DNA of 64,000 nucleotides from Promethearchaeota archaeon (GTDB lineage Archaea > Asgardarchaeota > Lokiarchaeia > Sigyniarchaeales > SOKP01): the NCBI GenBank assembly GCA_016840165.1, contig JAEOSU010000072.1, positions 1-64,000 on the forward strand, read 5' to 3'. Position 1 is the stretch's first letter; each line of letters begins with the position of its first letter. The notes under the pieces are model-generated. The model did no database searches. It saw only the letters and a program-made list of their open reading frames with translations, and was not told the origin of the DNA. A program made the position numbers and the translations under genes. Of the stretch, positions 3,481-62,721 are shown piece after piece.

Positions 3481-5487
3481 TCATGCTTTTATTTTATAAT
3501 CTTTCTTGAATTCTATTATTTTATCTCTTAGATATGCCGCATCCTCAAATCTAAGTTCTTTTGCGGCTAGAAACATTTTATTTTCAAGGTACTGAACAAT
3601 AATATCGATATCACCCTGTATTTCTAACTCTTTAATTTTGTCTTTAACATTTTGTTTTAACCGCTTCACTTCTTTTTCTCTAAATTCCTGTTCTTCGGAT
3701 AAGGATTCCAAGATATTCTTTTGAATTGTTTGGGGAGTAATGTTGTGTTCTTTATTATAAGCCGTTTGCTTTTTCCTTCTACGATTTGTCTCTTTGATAG
3801 CCTCATTCATGGCAGTTGAGACTCTATCGGCATATAAAATAGCCTTTCCATCCACATTTCTCGAAGCTCGTCCGATTGTTTGAATTAAAGAGCGAGTATC
3901 TCTTAAAAATCCAAGTTTATCAGCGTCTAATATTGCAACGAGCTGAACCTCCGGTAAATCTAACCCTTCTCTTAGAAGATTTATTCCAACCACTACATCA
4001 TAAGTTCCATCTCTTAATTTCCTTAATATCTCAAATCTTTCAACAGTGTCCACTTCACTATGGAGATATTCAATTTTTATACCAAGCTCTGAGTAATATT
4101 CGGCAATATCTTCTGACATACGTTTAGTTAAAGTAGTTATTAACACTCTTCCATTATTCGCAATGGTTTTCCGTAATTCGCCTAATAAATCATCAATTTG
4201 ATTGGTAGCGGGCCGGATTTCAATTTGGGGATCCACGAGACCAGTCGGACGAATGATTTGTTCGGCTGAAATACCTTCAGATTTCTTCAACTCGTAAGCT
4301 CCCGGTGTAGCACTCATAAAGATGAGATATTTAATTTTTGATTCCCATTCTTCAAATGTTAACGGCCGGTTGTCAAAAGCACTGGGTAAGCGCCAACCGT
4401 ATTGGACAAGATTTTCTTTACGAGAACGATCTCCTCCGATCATTCCATGAATCTGGGGTATTGTTATGTGTGATTCATCGACTACTATGAGAAAATCATC
4501 AGGAAAGTAATCAATCAAACACATAGGAGGTGTTCCAGGTGCACGACCATCAAGATGTCTAGAATAATTCTCTATTCCTTTGCAATATCCCATTTCTCGC
4601 ATCATTTCAAGGTCAAATTTAACTCTCTTTTCTAACCTTTGAGCTTCAGCGTACTTTTTTTCAGCTTTAAATTTCTGTAATTGGTCCTCTAATTCAAGTT
4701 CGATGGAATCTAACGCTTTAATCTTGTTTTCTTCTGGGATAATAAAATGCGTGGCGGGAAAAATTCGTATATGTGGATGTTGTCGAATAACTTCATTAGA
4801 GATGGGATGAATTTCATGGATACTTTCTATTTCATCACCAAATAAAGAAATTCTAATCGCTGTGTTTAAATATGCAGGATAAATATCTACGATATCGCCT
4901 TTCACTCGGACATCTCCTGGTTTGAACTCTATTTCTTTTCTCTCATAGTTCATTTTAATTAAGGCTTTAAGTATTTCGCTTCTTCTAATATTCTGACCGA
5001 CTTCTAAATTTAATGATACTGCTGTCCATGTTTCTGGGTCACCAATTCCATAAATGCATGAAACTGTTGCTACAATGATGACGTCATTCCTTGTTCTTAC
5101 CGCATGAGTTGCTGCTAAACGGAGGCGCTCAATCTCTTCATTTACACTGAAATCCTTTTCAATATATAGTCCTGTCACCGGTAAATAAGCCTCTGGTTGA
5201 TAGTAATCGTAATATGAGACAAAATAATGAACTGCATTATTAGGGAATAATTCCTTTAGTTCATTATAGAGTTGAGCAGCAAGAGTCTTATTGGGCGCCA
5301 TAACTAAAGTAGGCTTTTGAATTTCTTGTATAATATTAGCAACAGTAAATGTTTTACCAGTACCAGTTGCTCCTAATAAAGTCTGGAATCTTTTTCTGTT
5401 ATCTATTCCTTCTTTAAGCGCTGCAATCGCAACTGGTTGATCTCCACGAGGAGAAAATTCGGATTGTATCTTGAAACTAACACTCAT
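3481..5487 (-). CDS. uvrB: Excinuclease ABC subunit B
   Basis: GDQP, GATGTGKT, FVSYYDYYQPEAY beta-hairpin, VDESH, QTIGRASRN, C-terminal UVR motif. ATG at 5487 preferred over the track's 5499. Confidence 0.98.
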   Translation of the reverse strand: MSVSFKIQSEFSPRGDQPVAIAALKEGIDNRKRFQTLLGATGTGKTFTVANIIQEIQKPTLVMAPNKTLAAQLYNELKELFPNNAVHYFVSYYDYYQPEAYLPVTGLYIEKDFSVNEEIERLRLAATHAVRTRNDVIIVATVSCIYGIGDPETWTAVSLNLEVGQNIRRSEILKALIKMNYERKEIEFKPGDVRVKGDIVDIYPAYLNTAIRISLFGDEIESIHEIHPISNEVIRQHPHIRIFPATHFIIPEENKIKALDSIELELEDQLQKFKAEKKYAEAQRLEKRVKFDLEMMREMGYCKGIENYSRHLDGRAPGTPPMCLIDYFPDDFLIVVDESHITIPQIHGMIGGDRSRKENLVQYGWRLPSAFDNRPLTFEEWESKIKYLIFMSATPGAYELKKSEGISAEQIIRPTGLVDPQIEIRPATNQIDDLLGELRKTIANNGRVLITTLTKRMSEDIAEYYSELGIKIEYLHSEVDTVERFEILRKLRDGTYDVVVGINLLREGLDLPEVQLVAILDADKLGFLRDTRSLIQTIGRASRNVDGKAILYADRVSTAMNEAIKETNRRRKKQTAYNKEHNITPQTIQKNILESLSEEQEFREKEVKRLKQNVKDKIKELEIQGDIDIIVQYLENKMFLAAKELRFEDAAYLRDKIIEFKKDYKIKA

Positions 5488-52942: not shown

Positions 52943-53662
52943 TTATTTTAAAAATTTAATTAAATTCATCTGAGTAGAAGGAGACTCGATTTCTTTGTTA
53001 AAAGAATACCCGGTTAATTCAGTAACTAATTCCATGATTTTTTCTAAAACCTGATCTTCATTCAAACCCTCAGTATTTATAACAAAAACATGATCTTGTT
53101 GATTTTTTGATAATAAGAATTGGTTATAGTAGGAAAGAATTTCTAACAGGTAATCTTTTTCAAATTCATTCCACTTTTCTCGCCTTTTATCTATCGCACC
53201 TCTTTGAATAATTCTTTTTAAAATCGTATTTGGTTCTGCCACCAAGTAAATTACGTAATGTTCTTTCCAATCTACAGAATTATACGTATCTTCGATAAGC
53301 TTGTAATCCTTTTCTTTTAAATGTAAGCTTTTAGAATAAATTAATATGCATAGAGGGGTTCTATCCAAGATAATAAGCCTACCATTATACTTTCTATCAT
53401 AATTGATAACATTTCTATTCCTTCGAATAAATTGCTGTAAGAAATGAATTTCACTTCGAAATGCAGTTTGTTTGTCAGTAGAACCAAAAGGAAAAGGTGG
53501 TATTTTGCGATATCTCTCGGGAAAAAATTTAAATTTTCTATTATCAGCCATCTTTTTCCTAAATAGATGGAATATAGTTGTTTTACCTACCCCATGAGCA
53601 CCAGCAAGAGAAATGATGATATTATCCTTACTTCCTTTGTTTCTATAAATTGTTCTCCCCAA
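52943..53662 (-). CDS. Deoxynucleoside/thymidylate kinase-family P-loop protein
   Basis: GAHGVGKTT, LDRT, IYL...ILKRIIQRG. Confidence 0.78.
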   Translation of the reverse strand: MGRTIYRNKGSKDNIIISLAGAHGVGKTTIFHLFRKKMADNRKFKFFPERYRKIPPFPFGSTDKQTAFRSEIHFLQQFIRRNRNVINYDRKYNGRLIILDRTPLCILIYSKSLHLKEKDYKLIEDTYNSVDWKEHYVIYLVAEPNTILKRIIQRGAIDKRREKWNEFEKDYLLEILSYYNQFLLSKNQQDHVFVINTEGLNEDQVLEKIMELVTELTGYSFNKEIESPSTQMNLIKFLK

Positions 53663-53795: not shown

Positions 53796-54929
53796 TTAAG
53801 GGAAAATGACTATAATCATTAACACCGAATTAAAGATGATGCTAGCGATAATTGGATTGTATATATTTTTGTTTACTTCGTACAAAACCCCAAGAATCAA
53901 AAATATGAAAAATTCAATTAAAAAGAAATAGAGTCCTAGGGGTAATGAAAATACTAAATAGAGTAATGAATAAATCAGTGCAACAAGCACAATAGTACTA
54001 AATTTCCCAAAAAGATCATTTCCAAAATGAGATTTTAGTGTATTATGAAGAACGCCTCGATATACTATTTCTGTAGAAAATACACTCAAATTTAGTAAAA
54101 ATATAAGCAACACCATCCAATATGGCTCCGCTTCTCGAACTATTTGATTTTCTAATGCGATCTGAGAAAAAATATCATCAAAGTTGATCCCTAATTGCAT
54201 CATTAGCTCAATTATCGAATTCGAAAAACTATTAATAAGAATCAATAATAACCCCCCAATTATACCAATAACAATAGTAACCAAGAAGCTTTTAGGAGTG
54301 TACCAAAATCCGAGTTTTTTCATATTATGTTTTTTAGAATAAATATACCACAAAGGATATATTCCAAAGATAAGATCAGGAAGTTGGGATAAGATTATCG
54401 TCGTGATATTAATTGTTCCTGTGGTTCCATCTATAGGGAGTTGAAAGATAACTATAGATGTTATTAGGATTCTAATTATTATATATACCATAATAGAATT
54501 TCCAAATACATTTAATCCTTCTCTGAGATTCCATGTTGCTTTATTTAATACAAATCGTTGTTCCGGGACCAATTTTTTATCGGTAAAAATGAACCCTGGT
54601 CTTCTTTCACTTTTTTGGATCCCAATTTGATCCTTTGGTAGCTCGACTTTCTCTAATTTAGCATTACAGATCGGACATTGTTCAAGAATAGCAGAGCTTA
54701 TAATAGAACCACATCCGGGACATTTTCTTGAGATTTTATGCTTTTGATCATCACGAATTGGAATAAGCTCCTCTTTTACTTGATTCGTATTCTCTGTGGT
54801 CTTTCTTGCTACCTTTACCTTTACAACTAGTTTTCCGCACTTCGGACAATATATTTGTCCTTCATTTACTTTAGCGCCACAGTAGACACAATATTTAATA
54901 TTGGCTTTCTTATCTTTCTCATTTGACAT
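53796..54929 (-). CDS. Double Zn-ribbon + degenerate CPBP membrane domain
   Basis: CVYCG..CPKCG and CPGCG..CPIC; CPBP motifs eroded (TEIVYRG, YSLLY, SIIFN). Confidence 0.78.
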   Translation of the reverse strand: MSNEKDKKANIKYCVYCGAKVNEGQIYCPKCGKLVVKVKVARKTTENTNQVKEELIPIRDDQKHKISRKCPGCGSIISSAILEQCPICNAKLEKVELPKDQIGIQKSERRPGFIFTDKKLVPEQRFVLNKATWNLREGLNVFGNSIMVYIIIRILITSIVIFQLPIDGTTGTINITTIILSQLPDLIFGIYPLWYIYSKKHNMKKLGFWYTPKSFLVTIVIGIIGGLLLILINSFSNSIIELMMQLGINFDDIFSQIALENQIVREAEPYWMVLLIFLLNLSVFSTEIVYRGVLHNTLKSHFGNDLFGKFSTIVLVALIYSLLYLVFSLPLGLYFFLIEFFIFLILGVLYEVNKNIYNPIIASIIFNSVLMIIVIFP

Positions 54930-55053: not shown

Positions 55054-56322
55054 CTAATCATTCTTCTTTAACTTTTTTATCGATTTTTCATATAAGTTCT
55101 GTGAAATTGCATTTAATTGCATTAATAAAAATCCATGGTAAGAAGTTATTGAATTGTAATAACTCTCTCCCAGTGTATGTTTACCAGCATAAGTAAGTGC
55201 TAATTGAGCATTAAGTGCGGTTTCCATTATAAGTTCGATTCCTTTGTAAATTAAGTTCGGACTCCAAATCCCTCTATCAGGATTAGCCCACCAAGTCGTA
55301 TCCGAGCAAACACATCGATCATAAAACCATCTTGCAGTTTCAATGTAGGTTCTAATAATGGGTTCTTCTAAATGAGACAATTCAGAAGCATATTTCATAA
55401 GATGTTCTGTTGCAGTCATCATCTTCCAGTAAGATTGATGGATACTATTATCGGGATGATCCCAGAGAGGATAGGCAATATGATCCTCTAAATCTTCTTC
55501 TGTAGTGCTCCAGCTAGAATCTCGTGGAATGATTGGATTATTATGTGCAGGGAAAAGTTTATCCAATTCAGATATTAGAATTAGTTGTATCTCCTCCTCT
55601 TCATTTATTAATTCAAGTACTTTGCTGAGAAATTTTCTTTCATAATTCCTATGATGGTGCCCGAAAGTTTCAGAATCCATAGCAGTTATTATATAGTTAT
55701 CAACATTTTTTATTTCGTTATTATTGTTAAACATTTCTCTTAGATGGTTAACAAATTCTTTTGCGTTAATGCTATTAAATGAAATTTTATTACTTAGTAT
55801 ATCGTCCCTAAAAAATAAGTGTAGTCCCTGAGAAGAATGATAGATTTGATGAGAGGACCAATTTACGGGACATCCTATCCCACTCGATAAAATCCATTTA
55901 TACCCTAATTCCTGAACAACTTTAATGGTGTTAGAATTAATGGATAATTCTGGGGGAAAAAATCCATTTCGTTCCCATTTGTTAAAAATATTTTTATGAG
56001 TTTCTTCATTGAGAAGAATTTGGTGTTTCGCTTCTTTTTGCGGTATGAGAGGGAGTATTGGATGAAATTTTGCTGTGCCAACCAACTCAATCTTTCCTTC
56101 CGACCGTAAATAGTTAATAATTTCTAACGTTTCGGTTAAATTAAATTCCTGAAGCATATCAATTAGATTCGCGTTTAAATTCAGAGAGAATGCGGAGTTT
56201 TCATGCTCTTGAAGCATAGAAAATAATGGTTTATAACATTCTCTATTAATTCTTCTTAGCATCTCTGGATCTTGGAATGTTGGTTGGTATGTATGTAATA
56301 AAGGAGCCCAAAAAGTCGTCAA
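55054..56322 (-). CDS. Glycoside hydrolase family 57 protein
   Basis: HTYQP, HPILPLIP, FPPEL, AMDSETFGHH, SSWS. Confidence 0.88.
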   Translation of the reverse strand: MTTFWAPLLHTYQPTFQDPEMLRRINRECYKPLFSMLQEHENSAFSLNLNANLIDMLQEFNLTETLEIINYLRSEGKIELVGTAKFHPILPLIPQKEAKHQILLNEETHKNIFNKWERNGFFPPELSINSNTIKVVQELGYKWILSSGIGCPVNWSSHQIYHSSQGLHLFFRDDILSNKISFNSINAKEFVNHLREMFNNNNEIKNVDNYIITAMDSETFGHHHRNYERKFLSKVLELINEEEEIQLILISELDKLFPAHNNPIIPRDSSWSTTEEDLEDHIAYPLWDHPDNSIHQSYWKMMTATEHLMKYASELSHLEEPIIRTYIETARWFYDRCVCSDTTWWANPDRGIWSPNLIYKGIELIMETALNAQLALTYAGKHTLGESYYNSITSYHGFLLMQLNAISQNLYEKSIKKLKKND

Positions 56323-56416: not shown

Positions 56417-57964
56417 TCACTTCTGATTTTCCAATGCTTTTTTACGATTCATGCAAGGCACACATCGCCCACAAGGAATTTCATAATCCCCATAACAACT
56501 CCATGTCTGGTCAATTGGAACTTCAAGTTCCTGAGCAATTTTTATAACTTCTGCTTTAGATTTTGTCGAAAATGGAAAGAGAAATTCAATTTTTGATTGA
56601 TCTTTTGAATGCTTTGAAATATCAATTAACTTTTCTAATCCCTCAAAAAAAAGAGAACTTGTATCATTAAATTTTTCAATGTCATCCTTTAAATGTCCTC
56701 CAATTACAAATTGACATCCATAAATGGCAGCATGATATGCAGCAATAGAATAAAAAACAAGATTTCTTAAAGGTATATAGCCTTGTGGAGCATGAGTAGC
56801 AGAAGGAACGGGGTAACCATCCATTCGTAAATCTACGGCATCTTGAATATAGGTTGCCGAGACTTCTATTAAAGGAATATCTAAAAGTTTTGCCATAGTT
56901 TTTGTTGCAAGAATCTCTTTTTTTGGCCTCCACTTATAGTTTATTGTTAAACCAATTACTTTATAATCATTCTTTATTGCCCAATAGAGTGTCGTAGTAG
57001 AATCAATACCTCCCGAAAGTAGAACAATCGCTTTTTTACTAGATTTTTTATTATTATGGGCCAATATATCTTTAACTGCGGCTTCAATTGCCATATTTAG
57101 TGGTGATAAAGTATAATGCAGAAGTTCAGCAGTCTTTTCTCCATTTTCTATAATATCACATCGCATCACATCAATCATATCCTTGCATATTTCGAACCGT
57201 TCAGGAGCTTGTTCATATGGCACATATTCTATCGCAGGTTCAGGTATATTGAGTCCTAAATTTTTGATAGTTTTGAGCACAAATCTAACCAATTCATTCA
57301 TTGTAACTTTTTCAGGGCCTACTAAATTATAGATTTTATTCGTTTCTCCAACACCTCCAGCTGCTTGTAGGAAAGCGGTTATAGCATCCTCAACAAATAT
57401 TGGTTGCATAGGAATATCACCTCTACCAGCGATTAATACTTTTCCATCAATTATTTGTTCAATTGTCTCTGGGATGAGCTCATCTCCAGGTCCTAAAATA
57501 TATGAAGGACGAAATATTCTGTAGTCTAAATTTGAGCCAATAAGTAGTTTTTCTGCTTCTCGTTTTGACCAGAAGTAGTCATTTTTTGCCCAATCTCTCT
57601 CGCCGTATTTATCAACTCCTAAACCCGATGGATATATAATTCTTTTAACTTCTGCTTCTTTTGCGGCGTTGATTATTTGTTTTAATCCCTCAATATTCAC
57701 CTTTTGAAATGCTTCCTTACTTCCACAAACAATATTCGCAAAATGAATAACTGCAATACAACCATTAAAAGCCTCTTGGTATTTTTTATTATCAAACTGT
57801 GGTATGAGATATGGTTTTGCCCCTAATTCTTTAACTTCATTAACAACCTCTTTTCTACGGATAATTGCATGTACGCTCCATCCCTTTATCATAGCTAATT
57901 TTATTGTATTTTTTCCTAAGTATCCATTGGCTCCTGTAATGGTCACTCTTTTTGAATTCGACAT
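56417..57964 (-). CDS. queC: NAD(P)-dependent SDR fused to 7-cyano-7-deazaguanine synthase QueC
   Basis: N-terminal ITGANGYLG, YFWSK, RPSYILG; C-terminal LLSGGIDS, YIPLRNLVF, TWSCY...CGRCVPC. GGTGA SD favours ATG 57964. Confidence 0.88.
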   Translation of the reverse strand: MSNSKRVTITGANGYLGKNTIKLAMIKGWSVHAIIRRKEVVNEVKELGAKPYLIPQFDNKKYQEAFNGCIAVIHFANIVCGSKEAFQKVNIEGLKQIINAAKEAEVKRIIYPSGLGVDKYGERDWAKNDYFWSKREAEKLLIGSNLDYRIFRPSYILGPGDELIPETIEQIIDGKVLIAGRGDIPMQPIFVEDAITAFLQAAGGVGETNKIYNLVGPEKVTMNELVRFVLKTIKNLGLNIPEPAIEYVPYEQAPERFEICKDMIDVMRCDIIENGEKTAELLHYTLSPLNMAIEAAVKDILAHNNKKSSKKAIVLLSGGIDSTTTLYWAIKNDYKVIGLTINYKWRPKKEILATKTMAKLLDIPLIEVSATYIQDAVDLRMDGYPVPSATHAPQGYIPLRNLVFYSIAAYHAAIYGCQFVIGGHLKDDIEKFNDTSSLFFEGLEKLIDISKHSKDQSKIEFLFPFSTKSKAEVIKIAQELEVPIDQTWSCYGDYEIPCGRCVPCMNRKKALENQK

Positions 57965-58005
57965 AGAATCACCTAACAAAAAAGATCATTAAAAATGATT
58001 TAAAT

Positions 58006-58042
58006 TTAATTTCAATAAACTAAAAATTCTGATTGAAATTAA
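58006..58042. promoter_or_regulatory. 11-bp inverted repeat in divergent queC/queD promoter region
   Basis: TTAATTTCAAT-N15-ATTGAAATTAA. Confidence 0.4.
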
Positions 58043-58138
58043 TGAAATTTAAGGCAAAAATATAAAAATTATTAAAAGAAATTCAAAACAGATTACATAT
58101 TTTGATTGATTGATTTATTACCAAGAGAATGAATATGG

Positions 58139-58600
58139 ATGGGTTTTAAAGTCATCGTTAATAATGCTGACACCAAATTTAGCGCATGTCACTTTTTAAA
58201 AGAGCCATTGAAGTGTTCACGAATTCATGGTCATAATTACTATGTTTCAGTAGAAGTAGAATCGGATATTGATGAGAATCATTTTGTGGTCGATTTCATT
58301 GAATTAAAGCAAATTGTTAAATCAGTGGTGGAACCATTAGATCACTATGTTTTGGTGCCAGAGTTATCTCATAATCTAAAAATAACCAAAATGGATGAAA
58401 GTATTGAAGTTATTACTAGTGATAATAAAAAGTATATCTTTCCAAAATGTGACGTTAAATTTTTACCCTTGGAAGCTACAACCAGCGAAATGCTTGCTAA
58501 ATATATTCATTCCCAAATGAAAAAAGTATTTCCAGATAAAATTATTACCGTAAAGGTCGAAGAAAGTAAAAGTACAATCGCTGTATTTAGTGATAGTTAA
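58139..58600 (+). CDS. queD: 6-carboxytetrahydropterin synthase QueD / PTPS family
   Basis: FSACHFL, CSRIHGHNY, VVDF, LDH, TTSEMLA. Confidence 0.88.
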   Translation: MGFKVIVNNADTKFSACHFLKEPLKCSRIHGHNYYVSVEVESDIDENHFVVDFIELKQIVKSVVEPLDHYVLVPELSHNLKITKMDESIEVITSDNKKYIFPKCDVKFLPLEATTSEMLAKYIHSQMKKVFPDKIITVKVEESKSTIAVFSDS

Positions 58601-58614
58601 ACATCGTATGAATC

Positions 58615-59730
58615 TTATTTTTCAATAATTCGTTCTTTTATTATGGTCCCAAAATGTGTGGCTCCAGGACCAATGTGGACTAAAAATTCATCCCCTTTAT
58701 TCACGTTGACTACGGATTTTGCTTTTCCGTAAGTATCCACTAAACTTATTGTTTCAGCGTTTTGACAAATACAACTAATTTCAATTTTTTCCGAAGATTT
58801 GCCTGCTTCTAACAAAAATCTCAACATAGGGCGGGTTTCTATCTTAACTCTTCCAACTGTGACGACTCTCGCATTACCCATATAGTCTATGGCAAAAACC
58901 TTATCTCCCCCCTTAATTTCGCTTAAGTATCTTGTTTTATAGATTCGTTCTGAATCTTCACCTGGAACAAGGATATAAGCAGATACATCACCTGCATTAA
59001 CTCGAAATGGTCGTGAAGATATAAATTGAGTCTCAAATACTTCCGCATGGATTAATACAAATCCCATAGCTGTACTCCCTACTAACATACCCTCACCAAT
59101 ATTAAGGAGTGAGGTAGTGTCAACGCATACTCTTTCACTCTCTGAGATCGATTGTATATCTATCACCTTAGCTGCTTCTAATTCTATCATATAATCTGAT
59201 CTTATTATTTTTTTCATTTCTATTAGATCATCAGCACTCTTAGGTTCAAATAATATACCATCTACTCCCGATTCTAATGTTTTAAACATTAGCTCGGCTT
59301 CACTAATATTTTTTACATGGGCGATTAACTGGGTCTCACTATTAGCAGTTTCTGCTATAAGGTTTTCAAAAGGAATTACTTTCCAGTTTTTTGCCCTTAT
59401 GATTATAATATCAATGGTATTTGAGTTGCAAAGTTCTATTGCAGCTTCTAGATCTCCTTTATTATTTACATTCATAGATAAGCCAAGCTTTGGAATATGA
59501 GATCTTCCTTCTTCTATGATATTGTCTAAGTCTTCACGATTTTCACAAATATATACTTCCGTTTTCAGTTCAGGATCAAAAGCATATTTAGTTACCTGTT
59601 TTATAGTATTAAATTGGGAAAATGTTTTCTTTGAAACTAGAATGTCAAAAAAATTCATATTGAAAGCTTCTTGAGCTAATTCCTTCATATTATTTGATAT
59701 AACTCTAAAATCTAAGATTACTTTCTTCAT
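58615..59730 (-). CDS. 3-dehydroquinate synthase II (archaeal type)
   Basis: WKVIPFENLIA, LESGVDG, RVCVDT, RPFRVNAG, GRVKIETRP, QNAETI, HFG. Confidence 0.93.
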   Translation of the reverse strand: MKKVILDFRVISNNMKELAQEAFNMNFFDILVSKKTFSQFNTIKQVTKYAFDPELKTEVYICENREDLDNIIEEGRSHIPKLGLSMNVNNKGDLEAAIELCNSNTIDIIIIRAKNWKVIPFENLIAETANSETQLIAHVKNISEAELMFKTLESGVDGILFEPKSADDLIEMKKIIRSDYMIELEAAKVIDIQSISESERVCVDTTSLLNIGEGMLVGSTAMGFVLIHAEVFETQFISSRPFRVNAGDVSAYILVPGEDSERIYKTRYLSEIKGGDKVFAIDYMGNARVVTVGRVKIETRPMLRFLLEAGKSSEKIEISCICQNAETISLVDTYGKAKSVVNVNKGDEFLVHIGPGATHFGTIIKERIIEK

Positions 59731-60576: not shown

Positions 60577-62721
60577 TTATGAAAAATATCGTCTCCTATC
60601 CAATTCTCGATGAGACGATCTTATTGATTGAGTTTCTCTGATTTCTTTCTCTAAATTTTCAATTTTCTTATCTATAAGGTATAAATCCTTTTGTAAGTTT
60701 TTATAGGTTCGAAAGTAGTCAATTTCAGAGATAATTCCATCATTAAATTTCGTGTCCAGTGTATTTAGAGTTTGATCTATGCTATATCTTTCCTTTTCCA
60801 ATTCTAGCATTCTTTTCTTTTTCAATTTATCATTTTTGACACGATTTCTTCTTGTAGAGTTAGATAATGAGTAGTCAGAGTTAAAAAGATCAGAAAGATG
60901 ATTTTTTATGTATCCCTGATAACCTGGTTGGTTCTCATTTGTAATATTAGGATTTCTATCATAATGGGATTCATATAGAAGTTCATCAAGAGGATCCATA
61001 TTTATTTGACGATGATCCGGAGGTGAACCATTACCATATTTCTGCATTTGTTCTAATTTACGCATTAAAATATTTTTTTCCTCTACATCTGAAATTAGAT
61101 CATTGAACGGATTTGTGCCTCTTTGGGGCTGATAATTTTGAATTCTATGGGGATTATTAAAGTTCTGAAGAAAAAATTGATTTTCATTGTAATTAGGGGG
61201 TAGTAAAGTTCTAAGATCATCACTATAATATCTCAAATCTTGTGGAGTATGTATATATTGAGGGATTCCATTAGTTCTTACATAACTATTTTGATAAAGT
61301 GGTGGAAGAATGAAACTATTCTGGTTCGTGGGATAAGTTTGATATCTCTGATTTGGATTAAAAGGATTATTTATTATTTGAGAATAAGTGGAATTAGGAT
61401 AAGATTGCTGAATGGGGGCACTCATTCCTGCTGGAGGTATGTTCTGGAGATTAGAGTTATTAATACCATATCCCTGAGTACTTTCAATGGGTTGTTTCAA
61501 ATTACTATATTGACATCGTATACTAAAGAAGGAATTAATGGCTTCTTCAACAAAATTAATGACCTCGGAAGTATCAATTTCTATTTCATATAGTTTATTT
61601 GCCATATCCTCATCAAAAATGACCGTTTCGTCAAAATTTCTAGCAATTATAATATAATCTAGTACCTTATTGAGACTATTAGCAGGGAGTGTGAATTCAT
61701 ATCTTCCATAGGGGAATTCGATATATAATCTTTTAAACAGTTTGCCTTTTATGTTGAGTCTTGTGAGATCTTCCACTGGTGCTTTAAAGATATTCTTGCG
61801 TTTTTTCCTAAATTTACCATATAAGTGAATAAAGGAGAGGTCAAAATTTGTTACGAATAATATCCCTCTATTTTTTTTGTATTTATCTTGTGAATTTAAA
61901 CCGTTGGCTAATTTTGCATGGATGGCATACACAGGTTTTTCTTCTTCCGCTAAATTAAGATACTTTTTGTACATTTCAAAGTAATTTCTCACTTTCTCAA
62001 TGAAATGAAGATTGTTTTGTAAAGGAATCAATCCTTTGTTGATAGTTTCACTATTAGATTCTATAAATTCGGTGATAGAAACATAACTTCGATTTAGATT
62101 TTCAAAAATACCCTCTATTATTATTACATTTGAATTAGGTTGGTTATAAATATCGAAGAAATATTCTTTATTTAAAGAGAGATGATGAAATAAGACGTTG
62201 AGTTTCTCTAATAGGTTATCCTTTGCATAAATAAATAACTTTATGAGGGAATAAAGTTCAGATTCCATGCTCGGGTAATGATGACATCGAATAGGAGGAG
62301 CTCTCGCGTTTTCAATTTTTTGGCGAAAGACAATTAAAGAATTTGCTGCTTCTTTGAAAGGTTCGATGATTAACCGAGCATTTTTTATAAGTTTTAAAAA
62401 ATTCTTTTCTAATTCTTCTTTTTTTTCATAGATATTAATAATTTGATGAGAATGACACCTTGGACAGGATTTTAAGATTTGGTTCAGCCGTGAAACATTC
62501 TCACTTCCACATTCTTCACATATGAGTTTTTTCCCTTTGGAAGTATCAATTTTTTGAGAATTACATTCTTGGCATGTTAAGGTCTCAATTTTTTCTTCAT
62601 TTAAACAGTCAGAACAACAACTGGTACCACAGTCTTCACAATAATAAGCTAGTTTAATTGTCCTTTGACAAAAATGACATATCTGCATTTGGTGATCTGA
62701 CATTTTAAATTGAAAAAACAA
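60577..62721 (-). CDS. Zn-finger / coiled-coil / PH-like / low-complexity / steadiness-box-like protein
   Basis: Six CxxC pairs at the N-terminus, PH-like GILFVTNFDLSF segment, Q/N/P/Y-rich linker, C-terminal helical hairpin YSIDQTL...GIISEIDYFR. Confidence 0.7.
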   Translation of the reverse strand: MFFQFKMSDHQMQICHFCQRTIKLAYYCEDCGTSCCSDCLNEEKIETLTCQECNSQKIDTSKGKKLICEECGSENVSRLNQILKSCPRCHSHQIINIYEKKEELEKNFLKLIKNARLIIEPFKEAANSLIVFRQKIENARAPPIRCHHYPSMESELYSLIKLFIYAKDNLLEKLNVLFHHLSLNKEYFFDIYNQPNSNVIIIEGIFENLNRSYVSITEFIESNSETINKGLIPLQNNLHFIEKVRNYFEMYKKYLNLAEEEKPVYAIHAKLANGLNSQDKYKKNRGILFVTNFDLSFIHLYGKFRKKRKNIFKAPVEDLTRLNIKGKLFKRLYIEFPYGRYEFTLPANSLNKVLDYIIIARNFDETVIFDEDMANKLYEIEIDTSEVINFVEEAINSFFSIRCQYSNLKQPIESTQGYGINNSNLQNIPPAGMSAPIQQSYPNSTYSQIINNPFNPNQRYQTYPTNQNSFILPPLYQNSYVRTNGIPQYIHTPQDLRYYSDDLRTLLPPNYNENQFFLQNFNNPHRIQNYQPQRGTNPFNDLISDVEEKNILMRKLEQMQKYGNGSPPDHRQINMDPLDELLYESHYDRNPNITNENQPGYQGYIKNHLSDLFNSDYSLSNSTRRNRVKNDKLKKKRMLELEKERYSIDQTLNTLDTKFNDGIISEIDYFRTYKNLQKDLYLIDKKIENLEKEIRETQSIRSSHRELDRRRYFS

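Follow-up and report, generated by a model that had tools for sequence, protein, structure and literature searches.

To our knowledge, all known 7-deazapurines (queuosine, archaeosine, the dPreQ0 and dG+ bases of DNA, and toyocamycin-type antibiotics) are thought to pass through the radical S-adenosylmethionine (SAM) step of QueE, the 7-carboxy-7-deazaguanine (CDG) synthase. QueC, the 7-cyano-7-deazaguanine (preQ0) synthase, has been described in fusion with a glutamine amidotransferase; such Gat-QueC proteins occur in Crenarchaeota and phage 9g and make archaeosine-type bases (PMC6884629). A 2026 survey of the QueC family PF06508 makes no mention of a fusion with a short-chain dehydrogenase/reductase (SDR) and, in line with the preliminary description of this DNA, none was found in the searchable literature. 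Here we analyse such a fusion, denoted SDR'-QueC', which is encoded next to queD on contig JAEOSU010000072.1 of a Promethearchaeota (Asgard) archaeon, in an AT-rich stretch of 64,000 nt (G+C ~31%) referred to as the window. The data indicate that the archaeosine precursor is probably made or recycled in this organism by an undescribed route. Our preferred reading, to which we assign a probability of roughly 0.4, is that QueD and the fusion displace QueE and QueC and supply preQ0 for archaeosine.

The fusion is a single unbroken open reading frame (ORF) on the reverse strand (56417-57979(-)), comprising 520 residues when read from a TTG codon. Because its homologues begin at an internal MSNSK, the ATG at 57964 is the likely start, which gives a coding sequence of 515 residues (56417..57964(-)) with an open frame extending to TTG 57979. 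The N-terminal part is an extended SDR (SDR', 57065..57958(-), ORF residues ~8-305, PF13460/PF01370) and the C-terminal part a QueC-type domain (QueC', 56426..57040(-), ORF residues 314-518, PF06508). An AlphaFold2 model based on an alignment of 83 homologues (predicted local distance difference test, pLDDT, 93.4; predicted template modelling score, pTM, 0.79) depicts two Rossmann-type domains with a short linker of 8-10 residues in between. Head-to-head with the fusion gene, queD (58139..58600(+)) encodes a protein of the 6-carboxytetrahydropterin synthase type, the sole match to the 6-pyruvoyltetrahydropterin synthase (PTPS) family in the genome. It is recognised by PF01242 (E 1.7e-24), carries the CxxxHGH motif of the PTPS family as CSRIHGH, and scores 78 bits against TIGR03367, under the cut-off of 89.25. 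The two genes are separated by a gap of ~160-175 bp, and this divergent, AT-rich intergenic region (57965..58138) is common to both and presumed to hold their promoters; an Rfam search of it matched no riboswitch or other RNA family. ORF calling, Pfam and motifs agree with the preliminary description of one frame joining an SDR (GxxGxxG and YxxxK intact) to QueC, with queD divergently oriented.

Close homologues of the fusion are found in Promethearchaeota metagenome-assembled genomes (MAGs). Among 5.8 billion proteins searched, 218 relatives were retrieved. The top 120 are 49-91% identical, and nearly all of them comprise 507-570 residues and contain both domain families. A search of cluster representatives added further fusions at 50%, 39% and 33% identity, and in a protein atlas that contains neither this fusion nor a standalone QueC', a stored homologue led to only two clusters of such fusions, both from Promethearchaeota. 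In the databases, the fusion is automatically labelled '7-cyano-7-deazaguanine synthase' or 'epimerase'. The preliminary description had raised the scenario of a fusion unique to this assembly; as the architecture recurs in more than 120 protein clusters, an assembly artefact can be dismissed. Equally, it had raised the scenario of an SDR that is unlinked in relatives, and linkage was found instead, both within and outside the Asgards. In Bathyarchaeia, among them one with the complete chromosome CP070659.1, a scan of GTDB identified SDR' and QueC' as two genes that abut each other at a distance of 0-3 nt; this split module is present in 4/151 sampled Bathyarchaeial genomes. Scanning metagenomes with an SDR' profile gave 26 loci, 21 of which hold enough sequence after SDR' to be assessed, and 20 of these have QueC' either in fusion with SDR' (15) or encoded immediately after it (5). 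SDR' and QueC' form an obligate pair. Independently of this pair, another N-terminal partner was observed in the representative proteins P0190, P0223, P0237, P0255 and P0277 (458-730 residues), where a ComB-like 2-phosphosulfolactate phosphatase (PF04029) is fused to QueC. The QueC part of the ComB-like fusions is fully canonical (~240 bits, YGQxHxxE and YPDC intact), and the architecture looks undescribed.

The QueC' domain was compared with the published catalytic signature of canonical QueC (PMC13329287) and with the 3BL5/2PG3 alignment. Pfam QueC (PF06508) matches residues 316-518 with E 5e-43 and 147.5 bits, passing the domain cut-off, and the QueC equivalog TIGR00364 scores 125.1 bits, below its cut-off of 150.3. 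Both the SGGIDS PP-loop (residues 322-327) and the four cysteines of the Zn cluster, C495-Y-x6-C503-x2-C506-x2-C509 with a spacing of 7 versus the canonical 8, are invariant in 83 fusions. Likewise, the VPxRN-type motif (as IPLRN) and the conserved lysine (K475) are kept. Other pocket motifs are changed. YxQxHxxE appears as YKWRPKKE, with the tyrosine and glutamate kept, Gln replaced by Trp and His by Pro (clade consensus YxxRPxxE); YPDC appears as FNDT (FPDA in the clade), which keeps the aromatic residue and the aspartate and loses the cysteine, as well as the proline in this particular protein; and a GGH motif (IGGH) is found where canonical QueC has G-x-N. The "complete QueC" of the preliminary description therefore stands with respect to SGGxDS and the Zn-binding cysteines, though not with respect to the Q/H of YxQxHxxE, the P/C of YPDC or the TIGR00364 cut-off. 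Mutation of Y35, R99, the aromatic residue at position 131 or Y189 inactivates E. coli QueC (PMC13329287), and QueC' retains all four (E. coli numbering). The retention of essential residues together with the changes in other pocket motifs would fit a substrate that is related to, though not the same as, that of canonical QueC. A phylogeny of 83 QueC domains places all fused and SDR-adjacent QueC' sequences in one well-supported group (Shimodaira-Hasegawa-like approximate likelihood-ratio test, SH-aLRT, 99), which is nested in a larger QueC' clade that shares the same motifs. Moderate support (SH-aLRT 88) sets this clade apart from canonical QueC and from the "YGQ-type" QueC of archaea. Judged by motifs and phylogeny, QueC' is a distinct subfamily of QueC.

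Within SDR', residues 12-219 are assigned to Epimerase (PF01370)/NAD_binding_10 (PF13460) with E 1e-18 to 1e-19. The domain carries TGANGYLG as its GxxGxxG motif, an arginine pair after strand 2 (R41-R42) and the tetrad N95, S118, Y135 and K139, all of which are invariant in the 83 aligned fusions. In the split SDR' genes, the S, Y and K of the tetrad are invariant and the Asn nearly so. The invariance of the N-S-Y-K tetrad and GxxGxxG among the fusions argues for catalysis by SDR', and the arginine pair, a usual sign of NADP preference, suggests an NADP-type enzyme. C85 is an invariant cysteine of the fusions and is missing from the split SDR' genes. The AlphaFold2 model and Foldseek agree on a two-lobed epimerase/dehydratase fold. 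The best Foldseek matches are NDUFA9-type subunits and UDP-sugar 4-epimerases (E 1e-17, target template modelling score 0.64-0.77) at 17-24% identity in the alignments; the best sequence match in the PDB, 9g83_P, is an NDUFA9-type subunit as well. Weak matches to thioester-reductase and NAD_binding_4 models were also noted in this region. As to the split genes, it should be noted that in three Bathyarchaeial SDR' genes (L047 ~440-460, L085 and L077) the GxxGxxG motif is encoded in frame 5' of the annotated Met. An in-frame TGA precedes the motif exactly where the relative L087 has TGG (Trp), and no ATG, GTG or TTG lies between that TGA and GxxGxxG. A non-canonical start (CTG?) or read-through is possible for these genes, and the 279-residue database models of the split SDR' look N-terminally truncated.

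The inventory of pathway genes, proposed as a check in the preliminary description, was run on the source genome (G000), which is 99.7% complete; here and below, absence means that a gene was not found with the profiles used, in MAGs. The fusion is the only true QueC of the genome. An MptA-type GTP cyclohydrolase is present, as are the archaeosine transglycosylase arcTGT (TgtA, over the curated cut-off) and an ArcS-like gene that is immediately followed by RaSEA, the latter over its cut-off. The genome also encodes a QueT transporter. QueF (PF14489) gave no match in the fusion protein or in the genome. No queE was found: TIGR03365 and TIGR04322 gave weak matches only in this genome, and phylum scans with TIGR04349 and TIGR03963, which included it, returned none at E<=1e-15.

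The standard QueE models match just 5-7/151 Asgard genomes, whereas QueC is present in 53/151. They thus miss most Asgard QueE, and "no QueE" is meaningless in this phylum when taken at face value. A divergent, Asgard-type QueE was recognised from weak matches adjoining queD and queC in relatives. It comprises 274-290 residues with an EIFSSxQGEG N-terminus and a Cx11CxxC cluster, scores 28-45 bits against TIGR03365 (far below the cut-off), and is often clustered with queD, queC or mptA; examples are L037 1075-1938(-) (G030:C11 52821-53681) and L031 1363-2187(-) (G026:C1). A lineage profile built from three such proteins exceeds 180 bits in 32/151 Asgard genomes, nearly all of which have a standalone QueC, and matches none of the 14 fusion genomes in the same sample. 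On the source genome, the profile found no QueE, and phmmer searches with Asgard-type QueEs against all six-frame ORFs retrieved only activases at <30 bits. The fusion protein itself has neither a radical-SAM Cys cluster nor an EIFxSxQGEG N-terminus.

Several radical-SAM genes were considered as hidden QueE and rejected. The most QueE-like of them, an NrdG2-like protein on contig C8, passes the NrdG2 cut-off, and an NrdD-type partner gene with a Zn-ribbon and the RxxGY glycyl-radical C-terminus is present; the glycyl-radical activases on C30 and C36 were ruled out on sequence; and the radical-SAM genes beside MptA read as CofG/CofH-like. At the related fusion locus L091, a nearby radical-SAM gene reads as MoaA according to its sequence motif and its neighbours, which resemble Mo-cofactor and ABC-transporter genes. 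As a separate observation, the sequences in families f19 and f8 that match the Asgard-type QueE profile are interrupted by 1-4 in-frame stops, mostly TAG (G038, G047, G064, G070, G088, G006 and G082); these could be pseudogenes, insertions or cases of stop-codon recoding.

Across 61 genomes from the GTDB family of the source genome, these genes show three states of gene content. A standalone canonical QueC (227-247 Pfam bits) is present in 17 genomes; Asgard-type QueE together with QueD is found in 15 of them, and the other two genomes are 68% and 89% complete. The fusion is present in 19 genomes from five genera, with QueD in 19/19 and Asgard-type QueE in 0/19, six of the 19 having been tested for QueE with the Asgard-type profile only. 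The remaining state, without QueC, comprises 24 genomes: 22 are devoid of QueD, one has QueE and QueD sans QueC, and one holds broken pieces of QueD. Hence, the fusion and Asgard-type QueE never occur together (0/61), and intact QueD is restricted to genomes in which QueC, QueC' or QueE was also found. Both cassette types are present inside one genus (g6), and three genomes of the source genome's own genus have neither the fusion nor QueD. Genomes without any of these genes presumably salvage preQ0; arcTGT is present in 144/151 Asgard genomes. The QueD encoded beside the fusion is 60% identical, with the same motifs, to the QueD of a canonical queE-queD-queC cluster in a genome of the same family, whereas QueC' is only 28% identical to the QueC of that same genome. 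These values suggest that QueD was inherited vertically and QueC was displaced. The overall pattern is one of non-orthologous displacement, [QueE+QueC] versus [SDR'-QueC'], with QueD common to both. It may be added that one fusion genome of the source genus (G104) holds an extra divergent cluster of queD-like, canonical-type queE and QueC-like genes elsewhere (L030; G104:C7 ~63.0-66.0 kb), possibly an island of mobile or viral origin that serves 7-deazaguanine modification of DNA.

The preferred reading, in which QueD and the fusion take the place of QueE and QueC, can be put as a reaction sequence. GTP would be converted via MptA and QueD into 6-carboxytetrahydropterin (CPH4), and SDR'-QueC' would convert CPH4 or a close derivative into preQ0, the substrate of TgtA, with ArcS and RaSEA completing archaeosine. 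QueC' is predicted to perform the ATP-dependent carboxylate-to-nitrile step. SDR' would provide or enable the ring contraction that is normally achieved by the radical chemistry of QueE, possibly through a short-lived cycle of oxidation and re-reduction that involves bound NADP(H). Extended SDRs make use of transient oxidation by bound nicotinamide in epimerisation and decarboxylation, and UDP-apiose/xylose synthase brings about the contraction of a sugar ring. The likeness of the putative SDR' reaction to that of UDP-apiose/xylose synthase may serve as a lead only. In its strict form, the reading would have SDR' act with QueC' on the QueD product in a 7-deazaguanine ring formation that is independent of radical SAM and free of Fe-S clusters, i.e. 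a non-homologous replacement of QueE. We regard this strict form as tentative and somewhat unlikely, and the same holds for its corollary that QueD and SDR'-QueC' alone, with the bound nicotinamide cycling, would turn dihydroneopterin-type precursors into preQ0.

A number of observations weigh against the preferred reading. The fusion-bearing genera are related, so that independent events are few (at least two), and, given that QueD and the fusion lie side by side, a single deletion could account for their joint loss. QueD is not adjacent to the fusion at a few loci (L051, L088/L091 and L098). We know of no non-radical ring contraction from a pterin to a deazapurine, and a QueE analogue from an unrecognised family is possible. 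Moreover, the Bathyarchaeial split module occurs in genomes without any QueD/PTPS, including a complete chromosome of 1.98 Mb, which implies that the module does not always need QueD. All four split-module genomes are devoid of both QueD and QueE, and arcTGT was found in 3/3 that were checked (G151-G153). The metagenome locus L087 encodes, on one strand, SDR', QueC', a further ORF, QueT, a YGQ-type QueC and a transporter of the major facilitator superfamily, and the source genome has QueT as well.

These last points speak in favour of a salvage module, in which QueT or a different transporter would import a compound of the 7-deazaguanine or pterin type and SDR' and QueC' would turn it into preQ0, the former preparing it in a redox step and the latter making the nitrile. 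The proximity of QueD in Asgards would then be an inherited gene order or reflect a side role. We consider this somewhat unlikely, albeit the most probable of the alternatives. Within the Bathyarchaeia, QueD is present in 13/151 genomes and YGQ-type QueC in ~31/151, and QueT (PF06177) directly adjoins YGQ-type QueC at 11/11 loci examined. Salvage of precursors thus looks common in this class. The loci with such pairs are L067-L076, L078 and L087, e.g. L076 4951-5442(-) beside 4291-4947(-), and the checked genomes are mostly devoid of QueD and QueE; QueT and YGQ-type QueC look like a two-gene module that salvages a QueC substrate. In the Asgards, the excess of arcTGT over QueC (144/151 versus 53/151) indicates that salvage is widespread in the phylum, and the three fusion-free genomes of the source genus manage without the module. 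What salvage leaves unexplained is the mutual exclusion of the fusion and QueE+QueC in Asgards, the presence of QueD in 19/19 fusion genomes together with the confinement of intact QueD to genomes with QueC/QueC' or QueE, and the 60% identity of this QueD to that of a canonical pathway. Furthermore, no natural precursor is known whose conversion to preQ0 would take an NADP(H) step as well as the action of QueC.

It is unlikely that the fusion is an ordinary preQ0 synthase, with QueC' converting CDG to preQ0 and SDR' as a structural part or an NADP(H)-sensing regulator of the NmrA/NDUFA9 kind. CDG would in this case come from other organisms nearby or from a QueE analogue that has escaped recognition. 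The proposal draws on the NDUFA9-type subunits, which rank best among the matches of SDR' in sequence and fold and for which we know of no demonstrated catalytic activity. It also draws on QueC', which keeps its PP-loop and Zn site as well as all four positions at which mutation inactivates E. coli QueC. Still, a purely regulatory SDR would not usually conserve its catalytic residues so strictly: the 83 fusions share the full tetrad and GxxGxxG without exception, and the split genes retain them. The pocket motifs differ from canonical QueC across the whole QueC' clade. QueC' coexists with a normal QueC in locus L087 and in genome G153, which indicates that the two are not redundant. No spare QueE-like gene was found in the source genome.

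Even less probable is a different product, for example a reduced C7 substituent (an aldehyde or amine from reduction of the QueC'-adenylated acid or of the nitrile) or a modified pterin that carries a 6-substituent and derives from the product of QueD. With an NAD(P)H reductase beside a domain that adenylates, the fusion resembles carboxylic-acid reductases. SDR' weakly matches thioester-reductase and NAD_binding_4 models, and the changed substrate motifs of QueC' and the lack of QueF in the genome fit. However, the ArcS-RaSEA machinery of the genome requires preQ0-tRNA, a carrier domain is missing and the fusion-invariant C85 is not conserved in the split genes, there is no evident consumer for such a product, and the exclusion with QueE+QueC would not be explained. 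The suggestion of the preliminary description that the SDR acts downstream on preQ0, by QueF-like reduction or sugar tailoring, is disfavoured, as arcTGT, ArcS and RaSEA need plain preQ0, and it fits less well because the missing step lies upstream (QueE) and the exclusion with QueE+QueC would again be left unexplained.

The surroundings of the cassette were inspected as well. A deoxynucleoside-kinase-like (dNK-like) P-loop protein, a zinc-ribbon and Rce1-like membrane protease, a GH57 protein and a type II 3-dehydroquinate synthase (DHQS-II) are encoded at 52943-53662(-), 53796-54929(-), 55054-56322(-) and 58615-59730(-) of the window, respectively. Their synteny with the cassette is limited to close relatives, with no sign of a functional link. 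A third gene conserved beside the cassette was looked for and rejected, as the neighbours syntenic with it (GH57, DHQS-II, dNK-like and Snf7) represent ordinary synteny only. At L051 3843-6546 (CAYUTF010000106.1), the DHQS-II gene abuts the fusion directly, and queD is gone from its usual spot between the two. A Snf7/ESCRT-III family protein (PF03357; 59893-60540(+)) is encoded adjoining the locus, next to a protein of 714 residues (60577-62721(-)) without a Pfam match. Its N-terminus consists of Cys-rich repeats that resemble zinc ribbons, its middle is rich in Q/N/P and its C-terminus is a coiled coil; this pair is syntenic in six related loci.

In summary, an enzyme pair is found where QueE and QueC would be expected, which points to either a second route to the deazapurine ring or to unknown salvage chemistry. 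Either outcome would change how the capacity for archaeosine is predicted from genomes. On a practical note, calls of "QueE absent" in Asgards are unsafe unless a lineage-specific profile is used. Beyond the fusion itself, the analysis contributes the Asgard-type QueE as a control, the pairing of QueT with QueC, the QueD-less split version of the module in Bathyarchaeia, the three states of gene content and the wider QueC' clade.

With canonical QueC (PF06508 "cluster 1"; B. subtilis 3BL5, Pectobacterium 2PG3 and E. coli), QueC' has in common the PP-loop, the four-Cys Zn site, the VPxRN-type motif, the lysine and the essential residues, and both are linked to queD. By contrast, QueC' is only ~28-30% identical to it, features YxxRPxxE, GGH, FPDA/FNDT and Cx7C instead, is joined to or linked with a preceding SDR wherever the context is known, and occurs without QueE. 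The likeness to QueE is one of pathway position, in terms of gene content: there is no homology, SDR' carries neither Fe-S nor SAM motifs, and a role as replacement is what the distribution would suggest. Extended SDRs (UDP-sugar 4-epimerases and decarboxylases, UDP-apiose/xylose synthase) and NDUFA9-type proteins share the fold, GxxGxxG and the N-S-Y-K tetrad with SDR', whereas the identity in the Foldseek alignments is as low as 17-24% and no sugar-nucleotide context is seen at the fusion. QueF and QueF-like proteins are comparable as NADPH-linked enzymes of the same pathway, with a T-fold that is unrelated to SDR'. Carboxylic-acid reductases follow the order adenylation-carrier-reductase; in the fusion, the reductase is N-terminal, and a linker of 8-10 residues is found in place of a phosphopantetheine carrier. 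Gat-QueC comes close in being archaeal and in combining a QueC-type domain with an N-terminal partner that alters or extends the pathway. Here, however, the partner is an NADP-type SDR rather than a glutaminase, and the amidine step is already catered for by ArcS-RaSEA in this genome.

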